The translations under genes were made by a program, and so were the position numbers. The notes beneath the pieces are model-generated. The model was given only the letters and a program-made list of their open reading frames with translations. It made no database searches and had not been told where the DNA came from. Shown piece by piece: positions 26,931 through 45,600 of a stretch of 64,000 nucleotides of DNA. This stretch comes from Promethearchaeota archaeon (GTDB taxonomy: Archaea > Asgardarchaeota > Lokiarchaeia > Sigyniarchaeales > SOKP01): positions 224,001-288,000 of the forward strand of contig JAEOTA010000004.1 of the NCBI GenBank assembly GCA_016840085.1. Direction: 5' to 3'. The first letter of the stretch is position 1. Each line of letters starts with the position of its first letter.

Positions 26931-27644
26931 TTATATACCTAAATATACCTCTTTTATTCGAGGTTCTCTCTTTAATTCTTCTTTTGATCCTCTCATTTCA
27001 ATTTTTCCCTCTTCAAGAACATGAATATACTCAGCAACCTCCATTGCTAAAATCGCATCCTGTTCAACTAACAAAGTAGTTGTACCTTCTTGCTTTATTT
27101 TTTCAATTGCTTTAAAAATATCTTTCTTGACTTTAGGAGCCAAACCTAACGAGGGTTCATCCATTAAAAGTAGTTTTGGATTGGACATTAATGAACGTGC
27201 TATTGCTAGCATTTGTTGCTCTCCACCGCTTAAAGTTCCAGCTCGTTGTTTTTCTCGTTCTTTAAGACGAGGGAATATTTCAAAAATAAAATCTAATAAT
27301 TCATGGAATTTTTTCTTATCTTTTAATGTGTATGCTCCCAATCTAAGATTCTCCATAACTGTCATATCATAAAACAACTTACGACGTTCTGGACAATGAG
27401 AAATTCCTTTTTTTGCAATTCTATGAGGTTTTAACTCATCAATCCTTTCCCCTAGAAACTCGATTTTTCCTCTATCAGGTTCTTCTAAACCTGATATTAC
27501 TCTGAGAAGCGTAGATTTTCCAGCTCCATTAGGACCAATAACAGCATCTAAAGCTTTTTCTTCGATTTTTAAATTAATTTCTTCAAGAGCTTTAGCTTTC
27601 CCATAATAATGGTATACTTTTTTTATTTCAAGCAAATTCGTCAC
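26931..27644 (-). CDS. livF: Branched-chain amino acid-type ABC ATPase
   Basis: GPNGAGKST, AGTLSGGEQQMLAIAR, DEPSLGLAP, LLVEQ. Confidence 0.93.
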   Translation of the reverse strand: MTNLLEIKKVYHYYGKAKALEEINLKIEEKALDAVIGPNGAGKSTLLRVISGLEEPDRGKIEFLGERIDELKPHRIAKKGISHCPERRKLFYDMTVMENLRLGAYTLKDKKKFHELLDFIFEIFPRLKEREKQRAGTLSGGEQQMLAIARSLMSNPKLLLMDEPSLGLAPKVKKDIFKAIEKIKQEGTTTLLVEQDAILAMEVAEYIHVLEEGKIEMRGSKEELKREPRIKEVYLGI

Positions 27645-28368
27645 CTCTACCTAAATATGCTTCAAGCACAATTTTATTATTAGCAACTTCACGAGGAGGG
27701 CCATCGGCAATTAATTTCCCTTGATGCATTGCAAGCACACGCGGTACTAGATTCATTAATTCACGTAATACATGACCAGTAATAAAAATTGTTACGCCAT
27801 CCTCATATAATTCTATTATTAAATCATTAATGACCTTTTGTTCTTCATGAGAAAGTCCACTAAATGGCTCATCAAGCAAAAGTAATTGTGGGTTACTAGC
27901 GATTGCTTTACCAATTTGTAACTTTCTCAGATCGCCATGAGGTAGAATAACCGGAGGAATTCTCGCTTTATCTACAAGTCCAACTGATGCTAGAATTGAA
28001 CTAGCATACTCATCAGTTCCAATCTCTTTCGAACTCTTTCTACCTCTTTTTGAAAGGCTTGGAACAATAATATTATCAAGTAAATTTAAAAATTTAAATG
28101 ATCTAACTAATTGAAATGTTCGAGCAATCCCTAGATTCACTATTTTATAAGGGCGCATTCTAGTAATATCAATTCCGTCAAAATAAATTGTACCTGAATT
28201 AGTTTTCTCGAATCCTGATATTAAATTAAATACAGTAGTTTTACCTGCTCCATTTGGTCCAATCAAGCCAATAAACTCTCCTCGCTTGATTTCAAAACTG
28301 AAATCATTTACAGCTGTTAAACCACCAAATTTTTTTGTTAAATTTTTAACCTCTAGAATAATTCCCAT
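27628..28368 (-). CDS. livG: Branched-chain amino acid-type ABC ATPase
   Basis: FGGLTAV, GPNGAGKTT, GIARTFQ, LPHG, DEP, EAYLG. Confidence 0.93.
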   Translation of the reverse strand: MGIILEVKNLTKKFGGLTAVNDFSFEIKRGEFIGLIGPNGAGKTTVFNLISGFEKTNSGTIYFDGIDITRMRPYKIVNLGIARTFQLVRSFKFLNLLDNIIVPSLSKRGRKSSKEIGTDEYASSILASVGLVDKARIPPVILPHGDLRKLQIGKAIASNPQLLLLDEPFSGLSHEEQKVINDLIIELYEDGVTIFITGHVLRELMNLVPRVLAMHQGKLIADGPPREVANNKIVLEAYLGRGDEFA

Positions 28369-28409
28369 TATTAATCACATTTAAATTTTTATTCCATTTA
28401 ACCTATATC

Positions 28410-29462
28410 TTATCTACCCATTAAGACATCCCAGAAATCTTTCAGATGTTCTAAAATAGGTCTTAAAATCCCATGTTCAGCAAATCTAACAACAGTAATT
28501 AAAATTATGGCGAATATTGCAAATTTCCATAAGCCAACATCAAATGCAAAGGCGCCAATCTCAACCACACCAATCTCTATTAGAATATATTCAAAAAAAA
28601 TGAAGAAGAATGATCCTAATGCAGCCCCAATAATAGTAGTTAATCCTCCTAAAGATGCCATAAGAATAGCAAAAAATGAAATGACAAGTCCAAAATTTCC
28701 TGAGGGGTTTACTGAAGTAGTAGATAGGGCATAATAAGCTCCTGCTAATCCAGCAATTAACGCACTTATCATAAAAGCATAAATTTTATATCGTGTTGTA
28801 TTGATTCCTGAAGCATCTGCTCCCGTTTCATCATCACGAATAGATTTAAAAATGGTTCCTAATTTAGATTTACTAATTTGAATTAAAACTATAAAAATAA
28901 CTATTGCTGATATGAATACAATTAGATATTCTACTATAGGATTTTCAGATAAGGATGGTAAACCCGAAATTCCTTCAGAACCAAAAAATATATGTGAAAG
29001 CGATCCTAATAAAAAGAGTTTTAATAAAATTAAGCTGAATACGAGAGTTCCTAGTGCTAGATATGGACCTTTTAATCTTAAGCATGGAATCCCAATTAGT
29101 AATCCAAAAAATACTGCTCCTAAAGAACCAAGAATAATTGATAACCAAATAGGAAAATTTTGATAATCAATTAGGTAAGCGCAAAGATAACCAGATATTC
29201 CAAAGAAAATTGCATGTCCAAAACTAATTTGTCCTGAAATCCCTGTAAGTAAATCCCAACTTGCTGCGAAAATTGCAAATATCAATGCTAATGTAAAATG
29301 GGGTAAGAAGAAATTTATGAAACTCTGATCAGTAGATAGGAATGGTAGAACAGTAAGAATAGCTAAACAAACTACAGTTAATCCTCCAGAAAAAGTCGTT
29401 ACCCAAGATTTTAAATAACCTGGTAAATCACGCATCTTTTCTTTTATTTTATACCTTGTCAT
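28410..29462 (-). CDS. livM: Branched-chain amino acid-type ABC permease
   Basis: GQISFGHAIFFG, LRLKGPYLALGTL, IRDDE..A...GIN. Confidence 0.9.
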   Translation of the reverse strand: MTRYKIKEKMRDLPGYLKSWVTTFSGGLTVVCLAILTVLPFLSTDQSFINFFLPHFTLALIFAIFAASWDLLTGISGQISFGHAIFFGISGYLCAYLIDYQNFPIWLSIILGSLGAVFFGLLIGIPCLRLKGPYLALGTLVFSLILLKLFLLGSLSHIFFGSEGISGLPSLSENPIVEYLIVFISAIVIFIVLIQISKSKLGTIFKSIRDDETGADASGINTTRYKIYAFMISALIAGLAGAYYALSTTSVNPSGNFGLVISFFAILMASLGGLTTIIGAALGSFFFIFFEYILIEIGVVEIGAFAFDVGLWKFAIFAIILITVVRFAEHGILRPILEHLKDFWDVLMGR

Positions 29463-29502
29463 TTTTCTATTATCTCCTCATAAGGTTTTAATTTATTAAT
29501 TA

Positions 29503-30384
29503 TCACCTAAGTTCTTTCTTTCCAAATAATCCTTGAGGTCTAATTACCAACATGATAATAATAACTATAATGGGGATTAAATGAGCCCAAGAAGGGCCAT
29601 TAGGAATGTAAATACTTGTGAAGCTAGTTACAAATCCTACTATATAGGCTCCAATAACGCTTCCAACTAGACTTCCCATCCCTCCTAAAATCACTACTGC
29701 AAATGAATTTGTTAAAAATTCCCAACCCATTGTAGGGCCATTAATAGCAGCCGCAGGTATATATAAAACTGCAGCTATACTTGCAAGGAATGCGGAGATT
29801 ATAACAGTATAAAGTAGAATTCTATTGGCATTAATACCCATAAGTGTTGCAGCTTCTCTATCTTGGGAAACTGCTCTAATTGATTTACCTATTTTTGACT
29901 TATTAATGAATAGAGCAAATAATGATACAATAATTAATGACATGATAATGACGAATAGGAATTGATTAATCATTGAGTATCCAAATATTTCTGAAGTTCC
30001 AGAAATTAGAATATAATCATTAACTGCATAAGATTCAGTACCTGAAATTATCAAAGCCAACTGCTCAAGGAAGAAGGCTAATCCAAAAGTGATTAAAACA
30101 ACACCAACATGAGTATCTTGTAAGGGTTTGATTAATATTAAATAAGTAAGACCTCCAAGTATAGTGACAATAATTAAAGCAATAATTACATTAAATAATA
30201 AATAATCAGGCCAAAAATCAAGAAACCATAAAAGCAAATATCCAGTTAACATGAAATAAGCCCCATGAGACAAATTCATAATTTTTCCTACCCCATACAC
30301 TAAGGAATAACCAAGAGCTATCAACGAAAAAACAGCTCCATTTAAAGTGCCATTGAATAAAAAATTAAGAATATCTCCATTCAT
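29503..30384 (-). CDS. livH: Branched-chain amino acid-type ABC permease
   Basis: LIALGYSLVYG..IMNLSHG, GKSIRAVSQDREAA.LMGIN, VILGGMGS, RPQGLFG. Confidence 0.92.
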   Translation of the reverse strand: MNGDILNFLFNGTLNGAVFSLIALGYSLVYGVGKIMNLSHGAYFMLTGYLLLWFLDFWPDYLLFNVIIALIIVTILGGLTYLILIKPLQDTHVGVVLITFGLAFFLEQLALIISGTESYAVNDYILISGTSEIFGYSMINQFLFVIIMSLIIVSLFALFINKSKIGKSIRAVSQDREAATLMGINANRILLYTVIISAFLASIAAVLYIPAAAINGPTMGWEFLTNSFAVVILGGMGSLVGSVIGAYIVGFVTSFTSIYIPNGPSWAHLIPIIVIIIMLVIRPQGLFGKKELR

Positions 30385-30525
30385 AAATATCTTCTCATTC
30401 TAAATCATTTAATATTATTATTAATATTTTATCTCATATCTTATAAAGCTGATCTTTTTACATTTTTATAAAAAGAAAATACGAGTATAAATTGAGCTTA
30501 TCTTCATTTTTATCTTTTATATAAT

Positions 30526-30541
30526 AAAAAAAAAAAAAAAA
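30526..30541 (-). terminator. U-tract terminator downstream of the substrate-binding gene
   Basis: 16-nt A run (T run on the minus strand) about 30 nt after the stop at 30570. Confidence 0.5.
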
Positions 30542-30569
30542 TTATAAATTGAATTTATTAAACTGCCTT

Positions 30570-31961
30570 TTAAGACCATGCCTCATCGACCCATGGTGCA
30601 ACAAGATAATCAGCTGTGTGCAACCAAGGCGCGTATGGTGTATAAATAGCAGCTGGAACTACCTTCTTAGATCCATCAGGTTGCCATTGACACCATAATG
30701 TAAATCCATAAGGATAACCCGCGACAAGATCGTGAGAATTTGGCCACCATGCTGATTCTCCAGACACACCAATAGGACGTTCAGTATTATCTGTTGTCCA
30801 AGTCTCCATCTCAGCAATAATATCATCTGTGTCTAATGAATCAATTGCTTCAATAGCATTAGCAAGCGCATTTACAGCATCATAAGCCCCACATGCAATA
30901 TAAAGCGGTTCATGTTTAAATTGTGCGATAAACGCATCCCAAAATGCAATAGATTTCTCAGTTTTATTAGTTTTATGTAATGTTTGCATGATTGTCTCAT
31001 AAGCGCATGATTCTCCACTAGACTTCCAAAAAGTATCTAATTGGGACTGAACGTCAATACCAAAGATAAGGTAATCATATTCGTTAGCAGCATATTGTTG
31101 CATCATCAAAACTCCACCTTGAGCGGAAATGACTGGAATTAAAATATCACATCCATCCTCTTGAAATGAAGCTAAATGGGTATTCATGTCCGCAGCACTA
31201 AGAGTAATATCATATCTGATTGGGTCTAGAACTTTTGCTTTCATACCTGTAAAAACAGGTAAGTAATCTGCACAAGCAGCCACTAAAGTATCTACCCAGG
31301 TTAAATCTTCTGCTAGAATGCCAAATGTACTGATATCTTCATTAGGATAGGTAGCATTCATTGTTAAGATAAAACCTGCTAATGTTTGCAATATTTGCAT
31401 CCCTAGTGAACTTGAATTAATAGGCATAAATCTCCAGAAATATTTGTATGTATCATAATCGGTCATAACATTTGTACAGAAAATATCAGTAGCAGCACCA
31501 GTATCAATAAAGATAATTTCTTCATCCATGAACTCTTCCACATATGCTAATAATGCTTCCGATCTGAAACCACCTACTGCGAAATCAACTTCTTTATCGA
31601 ATATAAGTCTTCTTGCAGCATCAACTCCCCTAGAGGTTACAAGATTAGGATTAGATTCGTCTGTATCTTCTTTGGTAACACCAATGTAGTATTTTACTCC
31701 TCCAACATCAACACCACCAGCTTCATTTATGTGTTTTGCAGCAAACCATGCTCCTTCGTAATTAGCATCACCTTGAATTTCTCCTGTATCACCAGCACAT
31801 CCTATTATAATTGTATTTTCTTTATCAAAACCGCTTGGAGCTCCAGGGTATTTGAATGGTGCTTCAGGGACTGCAAGGAAATACCAAGCTCCCAAGCCGA
31901 TACCAACACCAATAACGGCGATAAGTACAATAGCTATAATTCTTTTTGTTAATTTTTCCAT
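30570..31961 (-). CDS. livK: ABC substrate-binding protein, LivK/type I PBP family
   Basis: N-terminal TM anchor; INEAGGV, GGFRSE, YDAV; heads the livHMGF genes. Confidence 0.85.
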   Translation of the reverse strand: MEKLTKRIIAIVLIAVIGVGIGLGAWYFLAVPEAPFKYPGAPSGFDKENTIIIGCAGDTGEIQGDANYEGAWFAAKHINEAGGVDVGGVKYYIGVTKEDTDESNPNLVTSRGVDAARRLIFDKEVDFAVGGFRSEALLAYVEEFMDEEIIFIDTGAATDIFCTNVMTDYDTYKYFWRFMPINSSSLGMQILQTLAGFILTMNATYPNEDISTFGILAEDLTWVDTLVAACADYLPVFTGMKAKVLDPIRYDITLSAADMNTHLASFQEDGCDILIPVISAQGGVLMMQQYAANEYDYLIFGIDVQSQLDTFWKSSGESCAYETIMQTLHKTNKTEKSIAFWDAFIAQFKHEPLYIACGAYDAVNALANAIEAIDSLDTDDIIAEMETWTTDNTERPIGVSGESAWWPNSHDLVAGYPYGFTLWCQWQPDGSKKVVPAAIYTPYAPWLHTADYLVAPWVDEAWS

Positions 31962-32191: not shown

Positions 32192-35100
32192 CTAAAAACT
32201 AAAAATAAGTTGTAAAACAAACAAAACTCCAAAGCTAATAAATGCGATAAAAAGAGTGATAAGAGTGTAAAATCTCCATTTAATAGAAAGTTTTTCTCTT
32301 TCTTCTTTTCTTCCCATATATACTAAAGTAATTGTACCAATTACGGCGATTGATATAAAAACAGTGAAAATATACCAAACAGGTGTGATATATATAAATA
32401 AAAATGCTATAACACTACCCCAACCATACGATAACCTTAATACTCTTCTTTTAAATATAACATCTGGATCAGTTGATTTAGCATAAGGAACAACTAGAAT
32501 TAAAAATGCAAAAATCGCAATCGTCAATAAAGTCGGATGAATCGGACCTAATAAAATACTTAGAAATAGTTCAGATAACAGAATACCAAGAAATACCGCC
32601 ACAAAAGCGCTAAATGTTATCCATATAGATTTGAAATGAGTCTTTAAAAAACCAAAAACTATTTTAAACACATCATTTATCAATTGCTTGATTTTTCTGA
32701 AGAATTTAATAAGAATTTCAACAAAATTATTGAAAAGTTCACGTAATTCTTCTAATAGAAATACAAAAGGATATATAAGCATTGTTATGAAAAGAATTGC
32801 TCCACTAAGTTCATAAGATAATGATACGTGATATAGTATTGAACTTAATAATGAGAAAAACGCTAGCCAAAAAGCAAAAGCCTTAAAAGAATGTTCTTTA
32901 AACGGTTTAACTATTATACCTAAAAACACTACAAATAATGATAGAGCTACGCTTATATTTAAGAAGAAATTGGTGTTTGGGACAAATCCTAAGAGTATGT
33001 GAACATCGACTGAAAGAAAAACTCCAATTGTCAAAAAGGAAATCTTTCTAAGACTTGATAATGATTTGTCTTCAAAAACACCTACATATTTATCAATACA
33101 AGTTAAAATGAAAAAGATTATACACGATAGTATTATTAGATTTAGAGCACGCAATGGATCTAAAGTAAGATAAAATAGTGGCCATATACCAAAGTCCAAG
33201 TATAAGATCATTAATAGAAAAAACCTAATTTTCTTTTTATTTGAGATTATATACTTTGAAAAATCTAATAGATTAAAAAGATAGGCTGTCTCAATTATTA
33301 AGATAAAAATTATAAGGGGTATAGATGTAAATAACAATTGAATGAATAAAGCAACATAGAACCAAATTAAGTAAGTTGTGGTAAAGATCATTATGAATAT
33401 CCACGATATAAATCTAAAGTAATTTGCTAATTTTCCTAAAAGTTTCACTAAGAATATATCAAGTATCATTAGAACATGAACCATCAAGCTTAAACTTAAA
33501 AATACTAATTGGGGATCAATTTCTAATAAAATCAGACCTTGGAGCAAAAGGAAAAATAGATTGAAATAAAAACATATTCCTAATACATGAGTTATATACG
33601 CTCTGTATTTAATGAGAGCTTCAGTTTTATCTGGATAAAGATGATTCAAAGCTTTAAACAAGGAATAATTTGTGTAAACTTGCATAATTATAAAAATCAT
33701 GAATTCTAAACTAAGCAATACGGGATAATGTAAAATATACTGATTAATACTTAGAAGTGTAAATAATGAGATTGCAAAATAACTTATTGTATGTATGAAA
33801 TTTCCATAACTTTTTTCAATCTTCTTTAGGATATGTATATCTAAAAACGTTAAAATGAACAATATTAGTTGTGAAATGATTATACTTTCAAAAACACCTA
33901 TTATTTCAGTTAATAACCCAAATATCATTAAACTAATTTCTATATACAATATCAAAATCAATAAAGAATAGAATTTCGTTCTGAATTCTGGAAACTTTTC
34001 TTTAGTGAAAATAAAATCAATATAATTAATTGTTATAAACGAAATACATGTTTCAATTAAAACTAACGAAAAGATGAAGAAAAAGTCTAATACATTATAT
34101 ATAATTAAAATTAATATCCAATTAATGGCGAGAAATCCTTGAAAACACAAAATTAGGATCAATTCAATTCGTTTTTTTACTCTTTCTTCCACTTTAATGA
34201 AAAAGTAGCTTAAAATAAATAATAAAAGAGAAGCATTTTGGGCAAATAATGAATAATATGCTAATTGTTCTAAATTTTGAAACAATAATAATAAGCCATC
34301 AGATATTAAGGAAGCTAAGTAAAAAGATCCCCAAATAAATGTATTATAATAGAGTATTAAACGATAAATAGAAATTTGTTGACGTGAGATATCTAAATAA
34401 GATAAAAAGTATATAGAAATAAGATTCAACACTGAAATTGTTAAAAATAATAGAAATAAATTTAAATGAGAATGATATAAGAAAACGGATAGAGTATTAC
34501 AAAATATGAACCATGATAAAACTATGAATTTGTTTCGTGTTGAATTGAATAAATAATAGAAACTATGTCTATCGATGATGAATGTTTCGAAAAATAAACC
34601 TCCACTTAAAATTAAAACAAATAGATAAATTGATATGACACGATTTAAATCTATAAAAATTAAATAAAGTAAAAAGTTAAGACTTAAACCAATGGGAATA
34701 ATTAGATATAGTATTAAGGAAATCTTATTAACATAGAGAAGTGGGTCTTGTACTTTAAATTCGATTTCAGATTTGATTATAAATCTTAAACATAATAAGA
34801 AGAGAATAGACCAAATTATAAGAAAATCCGTAATTTGATAAATTACTAATATTTGGGTGAATAAAAATTGCCTTAAAATAATTGGTAAGATAATCCCAAT
34901 GAATAAAGAGAGGAGTAAAGAATTAAGGATATAGCATGTAAAATTAAGCCATTTTATCTGATTTTTATCTTCATATAATTTCATAATACTATTTTTAATT
35001 TCGGCTTGCTCCTCTTTCACTAAATTTTTAAAAAGATTAGTCAAAATTTGGAAACATGTTAAATACAAAAGAGCCCATGTTAGATACCAATAAGGTCTAA

Positions 35101-38100
35101 TTACTTCAAGAATTAAAAGTAGTTCTAAAATAGGTAATGTAATAGGAATTGGAATTAAGAACCAGAGAACATATCGATATTCCGTTATTAAGAAATAGAT
35201 AAAGAAAATGAAGACAATTGAGAAAATTGTAATAAAAATTCCAATTGAAACTTTAAAAAGAGTTAAGAAGAGTAATGATATTGAAGATGAGGCTCCAATG
35301 GTAACAATTAAATAAGGAATTACTTTATTAATTGGAATGTTCATCTTGAAATGATTAAAAACAAAAAAGGAAGTACCAAAGACGGTTAATGCAAGAAAAA
35401 AGGAAAATAATAAAAATCCCTGAAATAAACTGAATGTGTTGAAGGTTAACCAAGAAAAACCTAATATTAATAACCAAGAAAGACATAAATCTATAAGTCT
35501 TTTATGTAATTTTAAATATTTATTAGAAAAGAGACTTAAACCTACAACAATTAAGCTAATATTAATTGAAAATATTGGATTTAATATTATAGAATATAAT
35601 ACAAAATATACTGTTAAAAATATACCCGTTAAAATTGTGAAATAAGCTATAATTAATATAAAACCTATTGACCTTATGTTCGGAAAAAAAGAATAAACAA
35701 TTAAGCACAATCCAATTATTAATATATCTATTGAACTCGCAATTTCTAATGAAATCTTTATTGACATCAAGTAAAACTGCCAAAAAGAAGCATTTATTAA
35801 TATTAATATTAACCATATTATTGAAGCAATTTTCCAATATTTAAAAATAGCGAATACAGGGAATAATAAAACTACAGAAAATAGAATAAAAGACATATTT
35901 CTGAGTAAATGATTAGCAATAAATAGATTTTGGCTAATCCAATACAATAAAAATAGACTTTCAGCCCATATAACAAATATAATATGAAAAAAATATTTCT
36001 TTATTTTAGTATATAATACAGGTAAGAACATTAGAGAGCATATTATTATACTGATAATTAAAGAACCATTAAAATCATAAATTCCGAATAAATTTAACGA
36101 ATTTGTAGCTATATCTATACCTGTTAGCCCTTTATATATTATGTAAAAATTTGCAAAGGGTATAATTATCCAAGCGTACCAACCTGATTTCCAAATCATC
36201 CAAGAAATCTTCCACTGATATATTCCTATAGAGATATAAAAAAGAAGAACACTTAGGTTAATAGCGATAATGATTGGAATAGGTTCTCCAATTGGAATCG
36301 ATAAAGAAGAGATAATTAAGAAATATATGAATATTGGAAAAGAAAGGATAGGTGATATTAAATTAATAGTAAATGAGATCTTTCTGAATCTTTCAGATGA
36401 TTTTTTGAAAAGAAGGACAAATCCAAATCCGGTTACACTCAGAGTTAAAGTAAAAGTAAGTATAGGATAGAAATCCAAATAAGGGGGATGATTGAAAAGT
36501 AATGAATATGATATAAAACTGATAAAATCGAATATAAACAGTAAAATGCTGGGTTTTATAAACCATTTATAATTTTCATCATTTTCACGATAAAAATGAA
36601 TACCAACCAAAAGTAAAAAGATAAAAACTGAAATCGTTATGGTATAAAGAATCAAAATATTCGTATATGAAATAAGATATACAAATGATAATACCGAGAA
36701 CGATGTATATAATGAGAATTTTTCGAGAAAATTATTTTTCTTAAAATGTAATAAAATTGAGAACAATAAAACTGAAATATAAGTTAGTAAGTATATGTTA
36801 ATAGAAAAACCAATAAAGATAAGATTAAATTCAAAAATAATGTCATAAATATCAAGAAGAGCAATGATTTTTATTAATGTGATAAAACTTAGTAAATGAT
36901 AAGATAAAAATCTAAATATTGGAAATAGACTTCTTTCTGAAAGAATAAGTGTATAAGATAGAATAAAAAGAAAAAGTGAAAGTATAGAGTTGAAGTAAAG
37001 CAAGCTTAAGAATAATAGTATATACAATAGATAAAATCTAAAAATTTTATACTCTGATTCAACATCTATTGCCTTATTAAATTTTAACCAAAGATAACTC
37101 AAAAATAAAACAAGATTAACGATAATCATTGAAATTTGAATTCCGGGATTATTATTAAAGAAGGAGACTGTATTAGATAAAATATAGAATGTTTCGACAT
37201 AAAAGCTTAATAATGAAACAGAAAATAAAATTACGGTTACTTTTTTCATTATTGATTGATTAACTTCGGAAAAAAGATTCAATTTTTTGAAATAAGAGAA
37301 AGTAATGGGGGTTAAAAATGTAAAAGCTAGTATATACAAAACGATTTTTGTGAAAATGGTATAGGAGAATATAAATATGAGAAAAAGACATACTATAATT
37401 TTAGTAAAAAGCCATGAGATAAATTCTAATCCATCTCTAAGCTTCTTAAATTCTACTTTTATAATATATGTAAATGATTTAAGCAAGATTAAAACAAATA
37501 GAAAAAATAGTCCAAGATACCAGACTATATTATACTGTTTCAAAATAGAAGGAAATAAATTCAGAATAGCGCTCTCATGAATTAAGAATATAATTACAAA
37601 TGATAAAGAGAATATAATACCATGTAAAAGACTATCGCGTAAATATTTATGAACTTTTAATTCTTTGGAATAATTAAATAGCAGGATCAAAGTATAAATA
37701 TTTATAACAAAAAATATCAAGAATGAACTGCTAATGATAAAAGGGCTAAAATAATGAAAAGAGAAAATTATAGGTAACTCTAAGATAATAAAGATTGAAA
37801 TTGTTAACCAAGTAAATGTTTGAACTAATTTTAGAAAATTTATACTTCTTTCTTTTAATAAAAACTTGTTAGACAAAAAGATTAAGAATTTTAGAGTTGC
37901 AAAAAATAAAAAAAGAGATATAGTAATAATATGGACGATATGGGCGCTTAAGCCTAATCTTTCTAATTCTAATCCAACAAAACTTGGAATTGAAATAATT
38001 AATCCTGATAGTATTAGGCTATTACCTAATATGACTTTCATAAGGAAATTCTCATTAAATAATCGTTTTTTATAAGAATATACACTTGGTAAATAAAAGA

Positions 38101-40708
38101 AAATTGATGCCGCAATGAAAGGTAAAAGAAACCCATAAAGAGTCCCATATAATAGGAGATAAATATAATAGAAAACAGTCGTTCCAGCTAAGACTACTTC
38201 AATAAAAGCTTGAGTTTTTAGAATCCTCATAGTGTATTTATCTTTCATTTGATAGTGTTTTATTAAATAGTAAGTAAAGGTTAGAATACCAAATACGATA
38301 TATAGTGAATAATTCACTACTGATATGGTATCAATAGGCAATCCTAAACGAAAAAAACGGTCTAAGCCGACAATAGTAGGGATTAATGTTATACACGCTG
38401 CTATTAAAACACAATCTATCAATAAAAGTTTACGTGAAATATTCTCATAAATTTTCTTTTTTAATAAGTAATATATTGGAAAAAATAAAATAGAGAAAAA
38501 ACACATGAAAGGAATTAAAAAAACATACAAAGTGTTAAGTGTGAGAAGAAATGAAATATAATAGGCTAATCCAGCGCTAAAACCTAATGTTATTAAATTT
38601 ATTTTAACGGTCACTGATTTTGAAAACAAAATTTCATTCCTAGAGAATAGGTTAACGAAGAAAGTCATAATTAGTAATGAAAAATAAATGGAAAATACTA
38701 ATTTTAGGTACAAAATTAAGCTTACTAACATAATCGAGTAAAAGAAAAAGAAAAACAAAGCAGTAAGCTCTATCGTCATCAAATAAGAATTTATATCTAC
38801 AAATTTTTTGAATATAGATTCTTTTAATCTTTCTATTTTTAATCCAAATTTTAAGTTAATATAACTAAAAATGGATAAAAATAGTAGATCTAATGTTAAA
38901 ACTATAAAATTATTTAATGAATTAATAAATATTGCCAGAAAAATATTTAAAATTAGTACCCAGAACAAATAATAACTATAGATTAAAAAATCGTTATGAG
39001 AAAATAATCCTATAAGATAATTCACAAATATGAAGAGAATGAAAATTATAGGAAATAATATAGAGGAAACTATTAAGACTTGGAAAAAACTAAATATTTC
39101 AACAATAAAAAATGTCCTTAAATTAATTAAAATAAAAATAAGTAATTCAATCAATAAAATATTTGTAAATACACATATTCTGAAGAGTTTTGAGCGTTTT
39201 GCATAAAAGATTCTAGCGTATAAAATATAAAATGAAAACAATAAAATTATTAGAATAATGGTTGAATGAAGTAAAATATTTGAAAATAATATGATTATTG
39301 GGTCTGATGTAAATCTAATATATTCAAAAATTAAAATGGGAAAGAAAGAGTATGTTATTAAGGAAAAACTGATAACCGCAATTATATTTTGAAATATGAT
39401 GATATCTTCTTTATGGAAATAATCAATTTTAACAAAAATTTGTAGAATTAGATATAAAGATAATAAAAAGACAATAAATTGAATATTTATAAGAAAAACA
39501 GTTGAGATTAGAGGAAGAACTCCAAATGAGATAGATATTAAAATCCCAATTGTATTAAATAAAAATACATATTTATTATACTTCTTAGGACAAAATTCTG
39601 TTTTTTGTTCATAATAAAAGGGAATATAAAGGAAGGGAAGTATCAGTAATATTAAAGTGGGATTATTTATTAAAAAACTGAATAAAACGACGAACAGAAT
39701 TAAGATTCCAGATAAAATTGAACTATTTTTCTGATATTTAATATTTTCTACATTATTTTTAGAATCATTAATTCTTTTCGAAGTCTTATATGTGTTTAAT
39801 TTGTTATTATAATGAAAAAGAATGTAAAATCTGGACTTAAAATAAGCAATTATAAATATTATAGTTAAAAAGGAGCTATTAATTAATTCTAATAAAGTAT
39901 ACTGAACACCTGATAGAATAGATGTAATCATTATAATAAATGGCATTTGAATTAATAAAACGAATATTAGACTCACTACTGAAATAACGAATTTTTGCTT
40001 GAAAACAGTTAGATCTTGTAAAAATACTTTTTTATCTTTAATTTTATCTTTTATTTTACTGCGCTGGATTTTTGTATTGAAATATGTGATGAAATAAAAT
40101 ATTAAATTTGTTATGAGACAAAAAAGCCAAGATAGATTTGTAGAAATAGTAAATGCTAGAAATATGATATGGACGATGTAATTAATTAGAATTATAAAAT
40201 TGTAAGGTTGTTTAATCATTAACCTTAGATTGATTGTATGTTTGAATTCATCCTCATTTATGTCATAAAAACCAATTGGTTGGAAACCATAATAGTAATA
40301 CACAATGTTATAAAGAGCGATAAAGCTAATTAAAGGAAGTTGCACAAATGTATACTCCACAGGGGAAATAATAATAAATATAGGAACAACTATAAAAGAT
40401 AGTATAGAAATTAAAAATAAAACATGAATTCTAGCAACCAGATTGTTTTCCTTATTCACGAAAAAGGATTTATTTCTGTATTTATCAAAAGTTTTATAAA
40501 AAAACAATAACGCAAACATAAAAGTTAAAACTGAAAGAGGTAATGCCAGAAAATTTCCTGCAGGAAAGAGTCTATAAATCCAAAACCCAGTAAAGGCAGT
40601 TGCAAACGGGGCTATAATCAAATAAAAAAAAAACCACCAGAGCTTTTGAAGAAATTCTGTAGCTTTCTTAAGCTTCTCTTCAGAATTACTACTTCTGTCA
40701 GATTTCAT
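32192..40708 (-). CDS. Giant polytopic membrane protein of unknown function (2838 aa)
   Basis: Uninterrupted 8.5-kb ORF of consecutive hydrophobic segments separated by short, often Lys-rich loops. Confidence 0.9.
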   Translation of the reverse strand: MKSDRSSNSEEKLKKATEFLQKLWWFFFYLIIAPFATAFTGFWIYRLFPAGNFLALPLSVLTFMFALLFFYKTFDKYRNKSFFVNKENNLVARIHVLFLISILSFIVVPIFIIISPVEYTFVQLPLISFIALYNIVYYYYGFQPIGFYDINEDEFKHTINLRLMIKQPYNFIILINYIVHIIFLAFTISTNLSWLFCLITNLIFYFITYFNTKIQRSKIKDKIKDKKVFLQDLTVFKQKFVISVVSLIFVLLIQMPFIIMITSILSGVQYTLLELINSSFLTIIFIIAYFKSRFYILFHYNNKLNTYKTSKRINDSKNNVENIKYQKNSSILSGILILFVVLFSFLINNPTLILLILPFLYIPFYYEQKTEFCPKKYNKYVFLFNTIGILISISFGVLPLISTVFLINIQFIVFLLSLYLILQIFVKIDYFHKEDIIIFQNIIAVISFSLITYSFFPILIFEYIRFTSDPIIILFSNILLHSTIILIILLFSFYILYARIFYAKRSKLFRICVFTNILLIELLIFILINLRTFFIVEIFSFFQVLIVSSILFPIIFILFIFVNYLIGLFSHNDFLIYSYYLFWVLILNIFLAIFINSLNNFIVLTLDLLFLSIFSYINLKFGLKIERLKESIFKKFVDINSYLMTIELTALFFFFFYSIMLVSLILYLKLVFSIYFSLLIMTFFVNLFSRNEILFSKSVTVKINLITLGFSAGLAYYISFLLTLNTLYVFLIPFMCFFSILFFPIYYLLKKKIYENISRKLLLIDCVLIAACITLIPTIVGLDRFFRLGLPIDTISVVNYSLYIVFGILTFTYYLIKHYQMKDKYTMRILKTQAFIEVVLAGTTVFYYIYLLLYGTLYGFLLPFIAASIFFYLPSVYSYKKRLFNENFLMKVILGNSLILSGLIISIPSFVGLELERLGLSAHIVHIITISLFLFFATLKFLIFLSNKFLLKERSINFLKLVQTFTWLTISIFIILELPIIFSFHYFSPFIISSSFLIFFVINIYTLILLFNYSKELKVHKYLRDSLLHGIIFSLSFVIIFLIHESAILNLFPSILKQYNIVWYLGLFFLFVLILLKSFTYIIKVEFKKLRDGLEFISWLFTKIIVCLFLIFIFSYTIFTKIVLYILAFTFLTPITFSYFKKLNLFSEVNQSIMKKVTVILFSVSLLSFYVETFYILSNTVSFFNNNPGIQISMIIVNLVLFLSYLWLKFNKAIDVESEYKIFRFYLLYILLFLSLLYFNSILSLFLFILSYTLILSERSLFPIFRFLSYHLLSFITLIKIIALLDIYDIIFEFNLIFIGFSINIYLLTYISVLLFSILLHFKKNNFLEKFSLYTSFSVLSFVYLISYTNILILYTITISVFIFLLLVGIHFYRENDENYKWFIKPSILLFIFDFISFISYSLLFNHPPYLDFYPILTFTLTLSVTGFGFVLLFKKSSERFRKISFTINLISPILSFPIFIYFLIISSLSIPIGEPIPIIIAINLSVLLFYISIGIYQWKISWMIWKSGWYAWIIIPFANFYIIYKGLTGIDIATNSLNLFGIYDFNGSLIISIIICSLMFLPVLYTKIKKYFFHIIFVIWAESLFLLYWISQNLFIANHLLRNMSFILFSVVLLFPVFAIFKYWKIASIIWLILILINASFWQFYLMSIKISLEIASSIDILIIGLCLIVYSFFPNIRSIGFILIIAYFTILTGIFLTVYFVLYSIILNPIFSINISLIVVGLSLFSNKYLKLHKRLIDLCLSWLLILGFSWLTFNTFSLFQGFLLFSFFLALTVFGTSFFVFNHFKMNIPINKVIPYLIVTIGASSSISLLFLTLFKVSIGIFITIFSIVFIFFIYFLITEYRYVLWFLIPIPITLPILELLLILEVIRPYWYLTWALLYLTCFQILTNLFKNLVKEEQAEIKNSIMKLYEDKNQIKWLNFTCYILNSLLLSLFIGIILPIILRQFLFTQILVIYQITDFLIIWSILFLLCLRFIIKSEIEFKVQDPLLYVNKISLILYLIIPIGLSLNFLLYLIFIDLNRVISIYLFVLILSGGLFFETFIIDRHSFYYLFNSTRNKFIVLSWFIFCNTLSVFLYHSHLNLFLLFLTISVLNLISIYFLSYLDISRQQISIYRLILYYNTFIWGSFYLASLISDGLLLLFQNLEQLAYYSLFAQNASLLLFILSYFFIKVEERVKKRIELILILCFQGFLAINWILILIIYNVLDFFFIFSLVLIETCISFITINYIDFIFTKEKFPEFRTKFYSLLILILYIEISLMIFGLLTEIIGVFESIIISQLILFILTFLDIHILKKIEKSYGNFIHTISYFAISLFTLLSINQYILHYPVLLSLEFMIFIIMQVYTNYSLFKALNHLYPDKTEALIKYRAYITHVLGICFYFNLFFLLLQGLILLEIDPQLVFLSLSLMVHVLMILDIFLVKLLGKLANYFRFISWIFIMIFTTTYLIWFYVALFIQLLFTSIPLIIFILIIETAYLFNLLDFSKYIISNKKKIRFFLLMILYLDFGIWPLFYLTLDPLRALNLIILSCIIFFILTCIDKYVGVFEDKSLSSLRKISFLTIGVFLSVDVHILLGFVPNTNFFLNISVALSLFVVFLGIIVKPFKEHSFKAFAFWLAFFSLLSSILYHVSLSYELSGAILFITMLIYPFVFLLEELRELFNNFVEILIKFFRKIKQLINDVFKIVFGFLKTHFKSIWITFSAFVAVFLGILLSELFLSILLGPIHPTLLTIAIFAFLILVVPYAKSTDPDVIFKRRVLRLSYGWGSVIAFLFIYITPVWYIFTVFISIAVIGTITLVYMGRKEEREKLSIKWRFYTLITLFIAFISFGVLFVLQLIFSF

Positions 40709-40827: not shown

Positions 40828-42150
40828 TCATTTAAATTTAGGAAGATAATCTTTTTGTATTTGACTCATTTCATTGAACATCTCTTCTGCAATTCCAAAG
40901 CTTCCCACATTAGGATCAGTGGCTAAACACGCAATTGCAAGATCTTTAGATTTATTCAACACAGCATCTACGCATAAATCTTGTATTGAAGCTTCAATGC
41001 GGAGTAAAGCAGCAATATTTCTAGGAATCTTTCCTAATTTAACTCCATGAACACCATTTTTGTTAACTGTTGCTGAACACTCTAAGATTAGATCCTGTGG
41101 TAAATTATCTGTAATATTATCATTAGGAATATTAACTGCAAATTCATAGGAATTTTTATCTGTAATTATTGCCTCGATTATTGGTACTGCTCTTTCTCCA
41201 GAAGTTCTCTCGAATAAAATGCCTTTACTTGGATATCTTCCTCTTTTAAGTCTTTTATGATAGTTGAGATATTTGTAATGAACAAATTGACCCTCATTGT
41301 CTATAAAGTTTATCCAATCAATCATATCCTTGGTTTGTGTGAATTCTTCACCGAATTGTAAGTATTCTCCAACGTGGTTATCGCCAGCATAACAAAACCA
41401 TCCAAATTTTTTAAAAACTTCAAATGTTAGAGTTGAAAATTCAAATCGATGTTCATATCCTCTAAAATAATCAAGAGCTTGTTCATTAAAAGTAGGCATT
41501 AAATCTTTGCCTGTTAATAAATCTTCTAAACTTAATAAGAATGCGAAATGATTTAGGCCACCTACTCCCATTTTTAACTCTCTAATTGATTTTTTAAACA
41601 TGTTGGGTAAATATCCAACTAAAAACGCGATTTGATGGCATAAACCAATAAATTTTAACTCTTTGACACTTCTCTTTATCGCTAGACATACTCGAGATAA
41701 TGGATTGGAAAAATTAATCAAAAAGGCATTTGGGCAAAATTTTTCAGCATCTTTAACAATTTCGACAATTGAAGGGATTATTCTCCAGGCATGAAAAGTC
41801 CCTCCAGGACCTCCGCATTCACCTAATATTTGTGTTGCCCCGTATTTTCTCGGTATTTCATAATCTTGACGCCATAATTCCATTCTATTTCCAACTTCAA
41901 TCGAATTAATAATAAAATCAGCATCTTTAAAGGCTTTAGCTCTGTTTGTTGTTCTTTCAAGATGAAGCTTATTCTTTTGTCTTTCATTTTCAATCTCTAA
42001 AAGATCATAAACCATCTCTAATTTTTTTTTATTTACATCATGAAGTACAACGGTAGAACCTTCTAACAAATCACTTAGAAAAATATCGTTAAACATTGGG
42101 GGACCGAATGATGTCGAACCAGCGCCTACTAGCACAATTTTTGGTTGCAT
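40828..42150 (-). CDS. GH4 NAD-dependent glycosidase (alpha-galactosidase/alpha-glucosidase type)
   Basis: KIVLVGAGS, DADFII, GECGGPGG, NFSNP, IGLCH, GLNH. Confidence 0.9.
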   Translation of the reverse strand: MQPKIVLVGAGSTSFGPPMFNDIFLSDLLEGSTVVLHDVNKKKLEMVYDLLEIENERQKNKLHLERTTNRAKAFKDADFIINSIEVGNRMELWRQDYEIPRKYGATQILGECGGPGGTFHAWRIIPSIVEIVKDAEKFCPNAFLINFSNPLSRVCLAIKRSVKELKFIGLCHQIAFLVGYLPNMFKKSIRELKMGVGGLNHFAFLLSLEDLLTGKDLMPTFNEQALDYFRGYEHRFEFSTLTFEVFKKFGWFCYAGDNHVGEYLQFGEEFTQTKDMIDWINFIDNEGQFVHYKYLNYHKRLKRGRYPSKGILFERTSGERAVPIIEAIITDKNSYEFAVNIPNDNITDNLPQDLILECSATVNKNGVHGVKLGKIPRNIAALLRIEASIQDLCVDAVLNKSKDLAIACLATDPNVGSFGIAEEMFNEMSQIQKDYLPKFK

Positions 42151-42485
42151 GGTTTCAAATTATAAGCTTATAGGATTGAATTATTTATAATATATTTAAA
42201 AAATTGATTGATTTAAAGAGTTTTTAAAATCAAGGTTAACAAAATAAGCAAAATTTTATAATTTTTTGAATTATGGGAAAAAATTAATTTCAGAAATAGC
42301 TTATTTCGAACTTTAAATTAGAGATTAAACAATCTATAAAATCTCTTTTTTCTACATTTTTGATTAAGTAAAAAAGATTATCACATTACTTAATTGTAAA
42401 AAATCTAATATTTAGATATAATGGGAAATCAATGGGTAAAATTTAAATAGATCTTTTCACATTTACTTATTAATGAGTTTTTCAC

Positions 42486-42552
42486 ATAATACTATGGATG
42501 TTTGGTGTAAATTACCTTTACCGACATTTAAGGTAATTATCCGTAGTATTAT
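42486..42552. other. Intergenic two-stem hairpin (candidate structured RNA or DNA element)
   Basis: 42486-42499 pairs with 42539-42552 (14 bp, one G-U); 42510-42518 pairs perfectly with 42530-42538. Confidence 0.6.
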
Positions 42553-42708
42553 TAAGAGAGAATAAATCAAATTTCTTGACCTCTTTCTGATAATTTTTAC
42601 TGATTTGTTCTCTTTTAACACTACATATCAATAATAATTATTCGAAATTGGTCAAAATTAGCATTTAGGACCTCTAGTGAAAAATTTAATTAAAAAAGGA
42701 GGTGAAAA

Positions 42709-42891
42709 ATGCTGGAAAAAGAATCAGATAAAATGGATCTGATATTGGATTATTATAAAGATTGGGATTCTTATAAAACTCCAGTTATGATGATGCTTGA
42801 TAACTCAAAAGAATTTAATGAAAATATAGAAAATGTTGATGAGAGAAGACAGGGATATCTTTGGAGTAAATATAGGAAATTTTCCAAATAA
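42709..42891 (+). CDS. Small hypothetical protein
   Basis: 60-aa ORF preceded by a strong AAGGAGGTGA ribosome-binding sequence. Confidence 0.6.
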   Translation: MLEKESDKMDLILDYYKDWDSYKTPVMMMLDNSKEFNENIENVDERRQGYLWSKYRKFSK

Positions 42892-42953
42892 TAGGAAACT
42901 GTTCCAATCTTTTAAATTTTATTAAAATTTTTTTTAAATTAATTTATTTTCCT

Positions 42954-44135
42954 TTAATCAAGAATCAACTTTATCCTTTCTAAAGCTTCTTTAATTTTTT
43001 CTTCAGGTTGAGTTAAAGCAAATCTCACATAACCTTCTCCATATTGACCAAAACCGGTCCCAGGTGTAACAACTACTCCTACTTCTATCAATTTTTTTAC
43101 GAAATTCATGCTACTCTTTTCAGAAAACTTTTTAGGAATTTGTGTCCATACATAAAAGGTTGCCTGTGGTTTTTCTGTTTTCCATCCCATATCATTTAAT
43201 CTTTTTATTAAAATATCCATCCTTTTTTCATACACTCTCACCGTTTTTTTTACTATTTCAGGTTTCTCCTCAGATTTATATTCACTTAAACCTTTCATTA
43301 CTGCTTTCTGTATGAATTTTGGACTTCCAGAGTCAATTTGAGACTTAACTTTCCTTACTCCTTGTATTATTTCTTTATTACCTGCTATCCACCCACATCG
43401 AAAACCAGTCATATTAAACATTTTAGAGGCACTATTAATTTCTACATGATTTTGATCTACTTGTAATATTGTCGGCGCAATATACTCATCAAACGTAAAT
43501 TCTGAATATGGATTATCATAAACAATAAAAAAGTTATAGTCTTCAGCATAATCAGCTACCTTTTTTAAAAATTCCTTTGGGGCGATCGCGCCAGTAGGAT
43601 TATTAGGATAATTTAGATACATCATTTTTGCTTTTTTAAGAATTTTAGTGTTAATTGCTTCTAAGTCTGGAAGAAATTTATTTTCTTTTATTAAAGGCAT
43701 CGGATAGGGTTCAGCATCGCATAGTTTTGTTGCCCCATTTTCATACACAGGATATCCCGGATTAGGACAAAGAACTATATCTCCTGGATTTATAAAAGCT
43801 CTCGCAATATTAGCTACGCCTTCTTTTCCACCAATTACGTTTGTAATCTCATCTTTAAGGTCCAATTCTACATTAAATCTTACCTTATACCATTTTGCAA
43901 CAACCTCTCTAAATTCTTCTTCACCCATACTTGCAGGATAATTATGGTTTTCTGGGATTCTAACTTCTTCAACTAATGCATTAATAATCAAGTCTGGAGT
44001 TGCTAAATCAGGATCTCCTATTCCTAGTGAAATAAAATCCATGCCTTTTTTCTTCTTTTCTGCTATTAGCTGTTCAATCTCTACAAAAATATATTTTGGA
44101 ATTCTTTTTACCCTCTCAGCGTAATCTACTTTAAT
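42954..44135 (-). CDS. dapL: LL-diaminopimelate aminotransferase-like class I PLP enzyme
   Basis: ISLGIGDPD, GGKEG, PGYPVY, NYPNNPTG, SASKMFNMTGFRCG, TPGTGFG. The frame extends to ATT at 44135 (IKVDYAERVKRIPKYIF). Confidence 0.85.
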   Translation of the reverse strand: MKVDYAERVKRIPKYIFVEIEQLIAEKKKKGMDFISLGIGDPDLATPDLIINALVEEVRIPENHNYPASMGEEEFREVVAKWYKVRFNVELDLKDEITNVIGGKEGVANIARAFINPGDIVLCPNPGYPVYENGATKLCDAEPYPMPLIKENKFLPDLEAINTKILKKAKMMYLNYPNNPTGAIAPKEFLKKVADYAEDYNFFIVYDNPYSEFTFDEYIAPTILQVDQNHVEINSASKMFNMTGFRCGWIAGNKEIIQGVRKVKSQIDSGSPKFIQKAVMKGLSEYKSEEKPEIVKKTVRVYEKRMDILIKRLNDMGWKTEKPQATFYVWTQIPKKFSEKSSMNFVKKLIEVGVVVTPGTGFGQYGEGYVRFALTQPEEKIKEALERIKLILD

Positions 44136-44292
44136 TTAAAACACCTATTTTTAAGAATTAGAGTGAAAGTACGTGTAGTCTATCATCTATATAATGATAA
44201 AAATTTTTCGAAATAGAATCTATTTTAATAAGAATTTATTAGAAAAATTGTACTAGAAAAAAAGCTAGAATATTTATTTTTTAAGATAATTA

Positions 44293-45600
44293 CTACTTTT
44301 TTTCTATTGGATTTATTTCATATTCATTCGGATCCATTGTTAGAAATGGTATGAAATCGATATTTATTAGTATTGCCATGAATAAGAAAATTATAGCATA
44401 AATTGCAAATGTGGGTAATCCAACTAAGCTTGCGAATAGTATACTCGTTAGTTCTAATCCAATTGTGGCTCCTAAATTAGTAAATGAGTTACACGTCGCA
44501 TAATAAGTTGCATCATAATCCGGATATAATTGAGATTCCTGAGCAATTACAGCAGAAAAGGCAGAATTTTTCCAACCCGCAGCCCCCCCTAAAAGAAATG
44601 CAAAAAACATTAATATTGACCAAATCACTGGTATTAAAAATAGTAAGAAGGAGATCGTTGTTATTAACAATGAGATATAAACACTACGCTTCCTTGACTG
44701 TAAATCAGCCATTCTCCCTCCAAGTAAAGCTCCAGTAATAACTCCTAATCCAATAATGAAAGCAGATAATGCATTAGGTGCATATAAATCTTCTCTTGTT
44801 GGATCACCAATTAAATCAATACTAGCGCCAGTAGAGCCAACCAAACCCCATTGAATAAGAATAAAAAGAGGGATAAATAAAAATATTACTCCATCCACTA
44901 TTGAATTAAATAAAGAGAATATATATACTTTCCAATTCTTAGCTTTACCAAAAATTACTATAAGATTATCAATTATATTTATTTCTACTGATTTCTTAAG
45001 CTCTTTAACGATAATTATTAAAAACGAGAATATAATCATCGCTATCCCTAAACCTATAAAAGCATATTCTATAATTCCTCCCGCTAATAAAATAAAAACA
45101 ACTAATAAAGGACCACCTGCAATTATACCCACAGATCTAAATCCCCAACATACGCCTTGCACACGGCCTAGCCTTTCTTTTGGATATAAATCTAAAATTA
45201 GCCCATCTATAGCGGTATCTGCCATAGCTACTCCTATAACAATAAACACGCCTAGTACCAATACCATTGTCATAGCATTTGATGGTGTTAAAATAAATGG
45301 AAAAAATACCCATAGTAGCCCTGATATAATACTAGGACCTATAATCCAAGGCTTTCTCCTTCCTATATTTTTAAAACCAAACTTGTCCGATAACATACCA
45401 TAAATGAACTTTACTCCAAACGGCAGAAGAACCAATGACATTATAGAGGCAATCTCTCCCGCATCTACAGTTCCAATTAATTGTAGTAAATAGATAGGAA
45501 TAATTGTTGTAAAATTACTCTGCACAATTCCTTGAGTAAAATAATTTAAAGAGAATACCCCAATGTATCTTTTTTTCAATTCGAGTTTTTCTTGTTCCAT
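44293..45600 (-). CDS. MFS transporter
   Basis: About 12 TM; GMLSDKFG...GRRKPWI, DTAIDG, GGRMAD. Confidence 0.9.
   Translation of the reverse strand: MEQEKLELKKRYIGVFSLNYFTQGIVQSNFTTIIPIYLLQLIGTVDAGEIASIMSLVLLPFGVKFIYGMLSDKFGFKNIGRRKPWIIGPSIISGLLWVFFPFILTPSNAMTMVLVLGVFIVIGVAMADTAIDGLILDLYPKERLGRVQGVCWGFRSVGIIAGGPLLVVFILLAGGIIEYAFIGLGIAMIIFSFLIIIVKELKKSVEINIIDNLIVIFGKAKNWKVYIFSLFNSIVDGVIFLFIPLFILIQWGLVGSTGASIDLIGDPTREDLYAPNALSAFIIGLGVITGALLGGRMADLQSRKRSVYISLLITTISFLLFLIPVIWSILMFFAFLLGGAAGWKNSAFSAVIAQESQLYPDYDATYYATCNSFTNLGATIGLELTSILFASLVGLPTFAIYAIIFLFMAILINIDFIPFLTMDPNEYEINPIEKK

Follow-up and report, generated by a model that had tools for sequence, protein, structure and literature searches.

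Piezo1 and Piezo2, which come close to the present system in their building plan, carry 38 transmembrane helices per chain, with nine four-helix units in each blade. Lokiarchaeial cells, which have no rigid wall, form long membrane protrusions. In general look, the nearest characterised protein is Arc3A, a DUF2339 protein of Pseudomonas aeruginosa (PA5114) with 35 predicted helices and no catalytic residues, whose relatives vary in helix number and which prevents the build-up of lysophospholipids under phospholipase toxin attack (PMC8926400). Other giants are on record: Asgard proteins above 3000 residues are listed in Extended Data Fig. 7 of PMC8813620, where the family treated here is not described, and the giants of a preprint on Omnitrophota giant genes are mostly extramembrane. 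The gene examined here lies in a stretch of 64,000 nucleotides (hereafter the window; positions 224,001 to 288,000 of contig JAEOTA010000004.1, assembly GCA_016840085.1) from a Promethearchaeota archaeon of the class Lokiarchaeia. Its 2838-residue product, a genuine integral membrane protein maintained by selection, has about 80 helices and exposes hardly anything outside the bilayer; a conserved core is flanked by two arms built from repeated four-helix blocks. Provided that the helix count is correct, chains of this family cross the membrane two to three times as often as a Piezo chain. Their insertion and folding then become a basic question, as does the function open to a protein residing almost entirely in the bilayer.

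The ORF (open reading frame) is exactly the one delimited by an earlier, sequence-only reading of the window, uninterrupted from its ATG start on the minus strand (Table 1). Within its limits the second-largest ORF has 91 residues, and no other reaches 80. The gene has a G+C content of 23-25%, compared to 29-34% in the flanks, and a T-rich coding strand, consistent with leucine, isoleucine and phenylalanine making up 46.6% of the residues. This bias, together with the fact that a shuffled sequence of the same composition already yields about 60 hydrophobic segments, could suggest an ORF that arose by chance in T-rich DNA, or a gene in decay. However, the frame is free of stop codons over 8.5 kb of A+T-rich DNA, and more than 115 homologues exist at 28-88% identity. 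When compared to an orthologue of 79% identity, the whole gene has a ratio of non-synonymous to synonymous substitution rates (dN/dS) of 0.21 and the core one of 0.17, and the ratio is 0.19 when compared to an orthologue of 54% identity; the gene is under purifying selection. Lysine and arginine are distributed in an ordered pattern along the chain, and AlphaFold2 (AF2) gives confident models, with a pLDDT (predicted local distance difference test) of 87 and 81. The orthologue of the cultured Promethearchaeum syntrophicum MK-D1 (DSAG12_00898) is transcribed, at 152 reads per kilobase per million mapped reads against 203-317 for its neighbours (Imachi et al. 2020, PMC7015854, Supplementary Table 3). 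Homologues, selection, charge order, models and transcription together rule out an artefact, the probability of which is negligible.

The number of helices was approached in several ways. Kyte-Doolittle hydropathy in 19-residue windows gives between 63 (threshold 1.9) and 78 (threshold 1.6) segments, and hydropathy averaged over 94 aligned homologues gives 76-83. The AF2 models of residues 580-1240 (pLDDT 87.4) and 1240-1920 (pLDDT 81.2) together cover 1,341 residues and show about 44 long helices; scaled to the full length of the protein, this corresponds to about 80-88. As the shuffled control scores 60 +/- 4 segments, hydropathy counting alone is a weak proof, and the estimate of approximately 76-88 membrane helices is supported by the helices of the AF2 models and by charge segregation. 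Indeed, loops rich in lysine and arginine alternate with short loops poor in these residues along the whole chain, and in this protein 181 of the 202 lysines and arginines fall in 43 loops (mean 23 residues) and only seven in 34 loops (mean seven residues), the other 14 being located inside hydrophobic segments. Where the parity of this alternation is apparently broken, AF2 shows two helices within one long hydrophobic segment. Following the positive-inside rule, the N-terminus and all long loops would be cytoplasmic. The longest hydrophilic stretch comprises 38 residues and the longest Lys/Arg-poor loop 21. The 70-85 helices estimated by eye in the sequence-only reading thus hold, and so does its claim that the protein lacks a soluble domain: at E<=1, none of the 24,736 Pfam-A models (hmmscan) and no NCBIfam model matches the protein. 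Within the family, only one other member (P0111) hints at a soluble element, as residues 159-190 in its N-terminal loop match a zinc ribbon weakly and under the cut-off (E 3e-4).

The helices are arranged as hairpins and four-helix blocks, and the suspicion that the protein is built from repeats was borne out. Whole-protein self-BLAST returned the identity match alone, and the repeats became visible by BLAST of fragments and by profile self-comparison, the latter assessed against a null of reversed alignments, in which no score exceeded 29.2. Within the N-terminal arm, hhalign self-matches reach 97-98.8% probability at a period of 128-131 residues. The strongest pair of adjacent units (98.8%) scores 128 and 127 bits with a hidden Markov model of the unit, compared to 7 for the reversed-sequence null. 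The C-terminal arm matches itself at offsets of 122, 244-257, 372-380 and 493-502 residues, with up to 95.6% probability, and the two arms are linked to each other at an offset of 1087-1099. These periodic matches within and between the arms show that about 1,180 residues derive from one ancestral four-helix unit of about 125-130 residues. With the HMMER repeat model only two strong units are recovered in this protein, the older copies being seen solely in profile-profile comparison. The number of strong units differs among orthologues (one, two, three and four copies in 11, 40, 30 and 13, respectively, of the 94 aligned), which accounts for lengths that step by about 130 residues, from 2838 to about 2980 and about 3110. 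A search of the source genome found the unit nowhere else, and no small free-standing homologue of it was found, the sole match being a fragment on a 620-bp contig. The AF2 model of the N-terminal arm combines a high local confidence (pLDDT 87) with a lower global one (predicted template modelling score, pTM, 0.61), and its weak fold matches are alpha-solenoids and strings of four-helix bundles. This suggests that the arm may form an elongated array.

The first eight helices are separable as a polypeptide of their own. This N-terminal module has an occupancy of 0.63 in the 94-sequence alignment, and in at least two lineages it is encoded by a separate upstream ORF of 313-317 residues, which shares 11-14 nt with the beginning of the main gene. 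Residues 1-305 align at 50% identity with these free-standing ORFs (L009:5070-6011 and L007:6061-7014), and the split point falls in the longest hydrophilic loop of the protein.

The core is the most constrained part, with a mean top-residue frequency of 0.58-0.64 compared to 0.33-0.55 elsewhere and with 15 invariant columns, among them W1506, G1509, P1517, N1520, P1563, W1581, P1617, W1625, W1632, P1676, Y1689 and P1853. Among its conserved residues W, Y, F, P, G, S and N predominate, while charged ones are few. The tryptophan-rich stretch previously noticed in the middle of the protein corresponds to residues 1497-1513, where conservation within the family is highest; W1506, G1509, W1513, P1517 and N1520 occur in 99-100% of the alignment rows, and the motif is retained in a divergent member of 26% identity. 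In the AF2 model of the core (pLDDT 81, pTM 0.69), two helices are broken around the invariant P1617 and P1853. The core's longest loop poor in lysine and arginine contains a predicted beta-hairpin, and the loop charge pattern would place this conserved hairpin on the outer face. Towards the C-terminus, the amphipathic helix that had also been seen by eye has the highest hydrophobic moment of the protein (0.77), and the loop which holds it, with 8.1 lysines and arginines on family average, is probably cytoplasmic. The C-terminal helices carry a conserved end motif (E2802, S2808, K2810-W-R-F-Y2814), also visible in homologues of 4296 and 4908 residues.

One explanation for the features of the core is that it forms the path of a solute or lipid channel or transporter, the arms being accessory. 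This would agree with helices that are discontinuous at invariant prolines, with an invariant asparagine within a helix, with the conserved E647, Q2190 and E2257 inside hydrophobic segments, and with the carbohydrate enzymes encoded nearby in several genomes (GH4, UxaC/UxaE, GH13, DUF2961). However, no transporter family or fold was matched, very few core residues are both conserved and charged, and the adjacency to GH4 is part of a larger syntenic block that is confined to one family and missing from MK-D1-type genomes. Such a transport function is considered improbable.

Searches of Pfam, NCBIfam, PDB sequences and 1.84 billion proteins, and comparisons with Foldseek and VIA-align, revealed no relative beyond the family itself. 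Neither Pfam nor NCBIfam assigned a family to the N-terminal arm of 47 homologues or to the homologues of 4296 and 4908 residues, and a profile search of PDB sequences gave no match at E<=10. The fragment-wise structure prediction and Foldseek comparison proposed in the sequence-only reading were carried out for residues 580-1920, and returned generic helical matches and no transporter fold. With the core model, Foldseek reached an E-value of 0.73 at best, the best VIA-align hit had a Z of 8.7 over 78 residues (generic helix bundles), and the template modelling (TM) score in the Atlas fold search was at most 0.23. The model of the N-terminal arm gave a best Foldseek E-value of 0.08 (TPR/HEAT-type solenoids) and a best VIA-align Z of 9.4 over 96 residues (generic four-helix bundles). 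The Foldseek and VIA-align values lie within the range of these tools for unrelated helical proteins. An Atlas feature search with the core retrieved unnamed clusters at 0.88-0.90, and the nearest named cluster was DUF2339 at 0.83, a level that is often due to chance.

This last match, and the same general look of a massive polytopic protein with dense helices in variable number and no soluble or catalytic domain, may indicate a buffer against lipid damage of the Arc3A type, in which the helices would bind or sequester lysolipids, or block lipases, and so protect a cell without a wall. Arc3A differs, however, in being bacterial, in having 35 helices and a partner (Arc3B), and in its role in the breakdown products of ester phospholipids. 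The DUF2339 model (PF10101) has no match in the protein or in the six-frame translation of the genome, exceeds its cut-off in none of 201 Asgard genomes, and scores in two of 14 control genomes. An Arc3B-like neighbour is also lacking, the flanking genes encoding a GH4 hydrolase and a LivK-type binding protein. Phospholipase A products would also matter differently in archaea, whose membrane lipids are ether-linked. It is therefore doubtful that the protein acts in this way. A 975-residue ORF in a genome of the same family (L013, G158:C198:3161-7741) has a sub-threshold DUF2339 match (E 5.5e-7, 28 bits, cut-off 33.6), and may represent a different large polytopic protein of Lokiarchaeia.

The function put forward here, tentatively, is that of a membrane-mechanics device which follows a Piezo-like logic but would have evolved independently. 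The core would be the working part, with its helices discontinuous at invariant prolines, its invariant N1520 and its conserved hairpin on the presumed outer face, while the arms would be adjustable extensions in the plane of the membrane, linking it to a wide area of bilayer, the whole sensing or buffering tension, curvature or lipid packing. The strong conservation, the proline-broken helices and the invariant asparagine make the core look like a working site rather than filler, and the arms look adjustable because their unit number drifts by whole four-helix blocks with the topology kept. This combination of core and arms resembles the logic of Piezo, which is why a role in membrane mechanics is ranked first. 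An enzyme or an ordinary solute pump seems less likely, given the lack of any Pfam or NCBIfam match and the few charged residues conserved in the core.

The resemblance to Piezo is one of design, not of homology. Both proteins have tandem four-helix transmembrane units forming long arms on a conserved central module and, judging from its build, the giant protein would share the very large membrane footprint. In contrast to Piezo, its core is flanked by two arms rather than by one N-terminal blade, it has about twice as many helices per chain, it is archaeal, and it lacks an extracellular cap or any domain above 38 residues, its Lys/Arg-poor loops not exceeding 21. Several observations weigh against a mechanical function. 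The protein matches no Pfam model, that of Piezo included; Piezo is not among the fold matches listed by Foldseek and VIA-align for the models of the core and the N-terminal arm, and these searches gave no sequence or fold match to any mechanosensitive channel. The broken helices and the buried asparagine fit a solute transporter or channel equally well, and the gene neighbourhood (aminotransferase, GH4, giant gene) offers no mechanical hint. The role as mechanosensor or membrane-shaping scaffold proposed in the sequence-only reading is accordingly not supported as stated, the sequence and fold searches having listed no Piezo match and a cap domain being absent. A bolder version of the mechanical proposal, which is thought improbable, is that the family constitutes an independently evolved lokiarchaeial counterpart of Piezo, in which a single chain of 80-130 helices would form an intramembrane ribbon tens of nm long; its arms would read or set the tension and curvature of the membrane, for example in the thin protrusions of wall-less cells, and its conserved core would turn this into a signal or flux.

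Table 1. Features of the giant gene and its product, with nucleotide positions in the window.
Feature	Residues	Position	Strand	Basis or remark
Whole gene (2838 codons and stop)	1-2838	32192..40708	minus	ATG start, uninterrupted ORF
N-terminal module, 8 helices	1-330	39719..40708	minus	ends in the longest hydrophilic loop (294-331)
Helical hairpins, weak repeat signal	331-671	38696..39718	minus	profile self-comparison, family hydropathy
N-terminal arm, ~3.7 units of ~130 residues, four helices each	672-1157	37238..38695	minus	hhalign
Strong tandem pair of the 130-residue unit	717-845 and 846-975	37784..38560	minus	BLASTP E 4e-13, 34% identity
Conserved core, ~20 helices	~1300-1890	35039..36811	minus	family conservation, AF2
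Tryptophan-rich transmembrane helix	1497-1529	36122..36220	minus	alignment, AF2
Predicted beta-hairpin	1537-1547	36068..36100	minus	DSSP strands, model positions 298-301 and 305-308
C-terminal arm, ~5.6 units of ~122-127 residues	1914-2612	32873..34969	minus	hhalign
Basic loop with amphipathic helix (2668-2685)	2650-2694	32627..32761	minus	hydrophobic moment
C-terminal helices	2695-2838	32192..32626	minus	family alignment

The view of the protein as an uncharacterised Asgard giant was confirmed, as its homologues, of 1570-3754 residues, are without exception annotated 'hypothetical', belong to Lokiarchaeia, and are neither absent nor resolvable into fused known transporters. Over their full length, the closest two share 88% and 79% identity with it. 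The source genome (4.68 Mb, 98.8% complete) has a single copy of the gene. A profile of the core detected the family in 118 genomes out of a phylum-wide sample of 400, mostly with one match per genome, and all matches except a marginal one (E 7.8e-5) fall in the window's own order, where families f1 to f4 contribute 101 of 134, 1 of 1, 12 of 14 and 2 of 4 genomes, respectively. With a divergent fragment of 26% core identity as query, this phylum-wide search reached a member of 2615 residues in another order of Lokiarchaeia, but none in any other class. As far as these sequence searches reach, the family appears confined to two orders of one class, Lokiarchaeia. An exhaustive HMMER search with the core profile among 1.84 billion representatives retrieved 54 proteins, all of which are giant members or short pieces that match parts of the core. 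Two apparent minimal short forms (P0143 and P0152) were rejected, as both are cut by contig ends. Source labels such as Hodarchaeota, Thorarchaeota and one 'Nanopelagicaceae' are at odds with this distribution and are taken here as loose labels of metagenome-assembled genomes; the last concerns a member of 1892 residues (P0108, 'Candidatus Nanopelagicaceae bacterium'), probably from a mis-binned Asgard contig.

Longer orthologues occur in MK-D1 (DSAG12_00898, QEE15075.1; 3940 residues, retrieved by exact look-up), in Ca. Lokiarchaeum ossiferum (NEF87_002906, UYP46621.1; 3146 residues, and a paralogue of 4908 residues at L003:3279-18002) and in Ca. Harpocratesius repetitus (MCF2139232.1; 4296 residues). 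Like the window protein they match the core profile (E 1e-58 to 1e-69), carry the same tryptophan-rich signature and C-terminal motif, and have no Pfam domain. Unlike it, they have 103-115 hydrophobic segments by the same hydropathy count, more repeats, some hydrophilic linkers and other gene neighbourhoods. In the C-terminal arm of the 4908-residue paralogue, three near-identical blocks lie a few hundred residues apart, as judged by eye, each beginning with a hydrophilic linker that bears 'KYGHPDQ'-like motifs, which indicates that recent expansion by large blocks also occurs. Among the papers available to the literature search, none names DSAG12_00898, NEF87_002906 or their accessions. The family is conserved in an archaeal group which includes cultured relatives of the eukaryotic ancestor, and both cultured organisms, MK-D1 and L. 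ossiferum, carry orthologues, the MK-D1 gene being transcribed. A large in-membrane device specific to cells that lack a wall and form protrusions would be a direct candidate for their unusual membrane biology.

In the window, all flanking genes are on the minus strand as well. Downstream lies a complete branched-chain amino-acid ABC importer of the LivK/H/M/G type (27628-31961), and upstream (40828-45600) genes for GH4, a class I/II aminotransferase and an MFS transporter. The giant gene is separated from the upstream GH4 gene by an A+T-rich spacer of 119 nt, carrying a TATA-like element (aaatttatta), and from the downstream LivK-type gene by a spacer of 230 nt with T-runs, and these spacers make a promoter and a terminator of its own probable. 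In genomes of the window's family, the order DUF134, MFS, aminotransferase, small ORFs, GH4, giant gene, GyrI-like and PolB is kept down to about 31% identity of the giant protein, with UxaE-UxaC replacing GH4 in one genome. The neighbours in MK-D1-type genomes are unrelated (flotillin and amidohydrolase; HisG-HisD; alpha-amylase-family and PhoU-like genes; acyltransferase and DUF2961), and across nine other loci no conserved partner gene was found. The conserved neighbourhood is therefore read as inherited synteny and not as an operon, and a functional link to the GH4 and sugar genes was set aside, given the restriction of this block to one family. A gene for a flotillin/SPFH (Band_7) membrane-microdomain protein is located directly upstream of the giant gene in MK-D1 (L008:2207-3442), in that genome only.

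A protein of this build could also be a docking platform or passive scaffold which, without any activity of its own, would organise other components such as the cytoskeleton, surface proteins or membrane microdomains, contacts being made through the basic loops on the presumed cytoplasmic side and the conserved hairpin on the presumed outer face. The 43 basic loops of about 23 residues and the strong C-terminal amphipathic helix in a protein without a soluble domain are compatible with such a role, as are the tolerated variation in unit number, the usually single match per genome across the order and the single case of an upstream flotillin gene. A scaffold has, however, no obvious need for the invariant prolines, asparagine and tryptophans and the broken helices of the core, and the lack of a partner gene conserved across families also argues against it, so that a purely passive function seems unlikely.

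The spacer between the aminotransferase and GH4 genes contains one or two opposite-strand ORFs of 43-69 residues in five other genomes that share the synteny (L006, L007, L011, L012 and L022), and in the window a candidate hairpin RNA has been placed in the same spacer (42151-42953).

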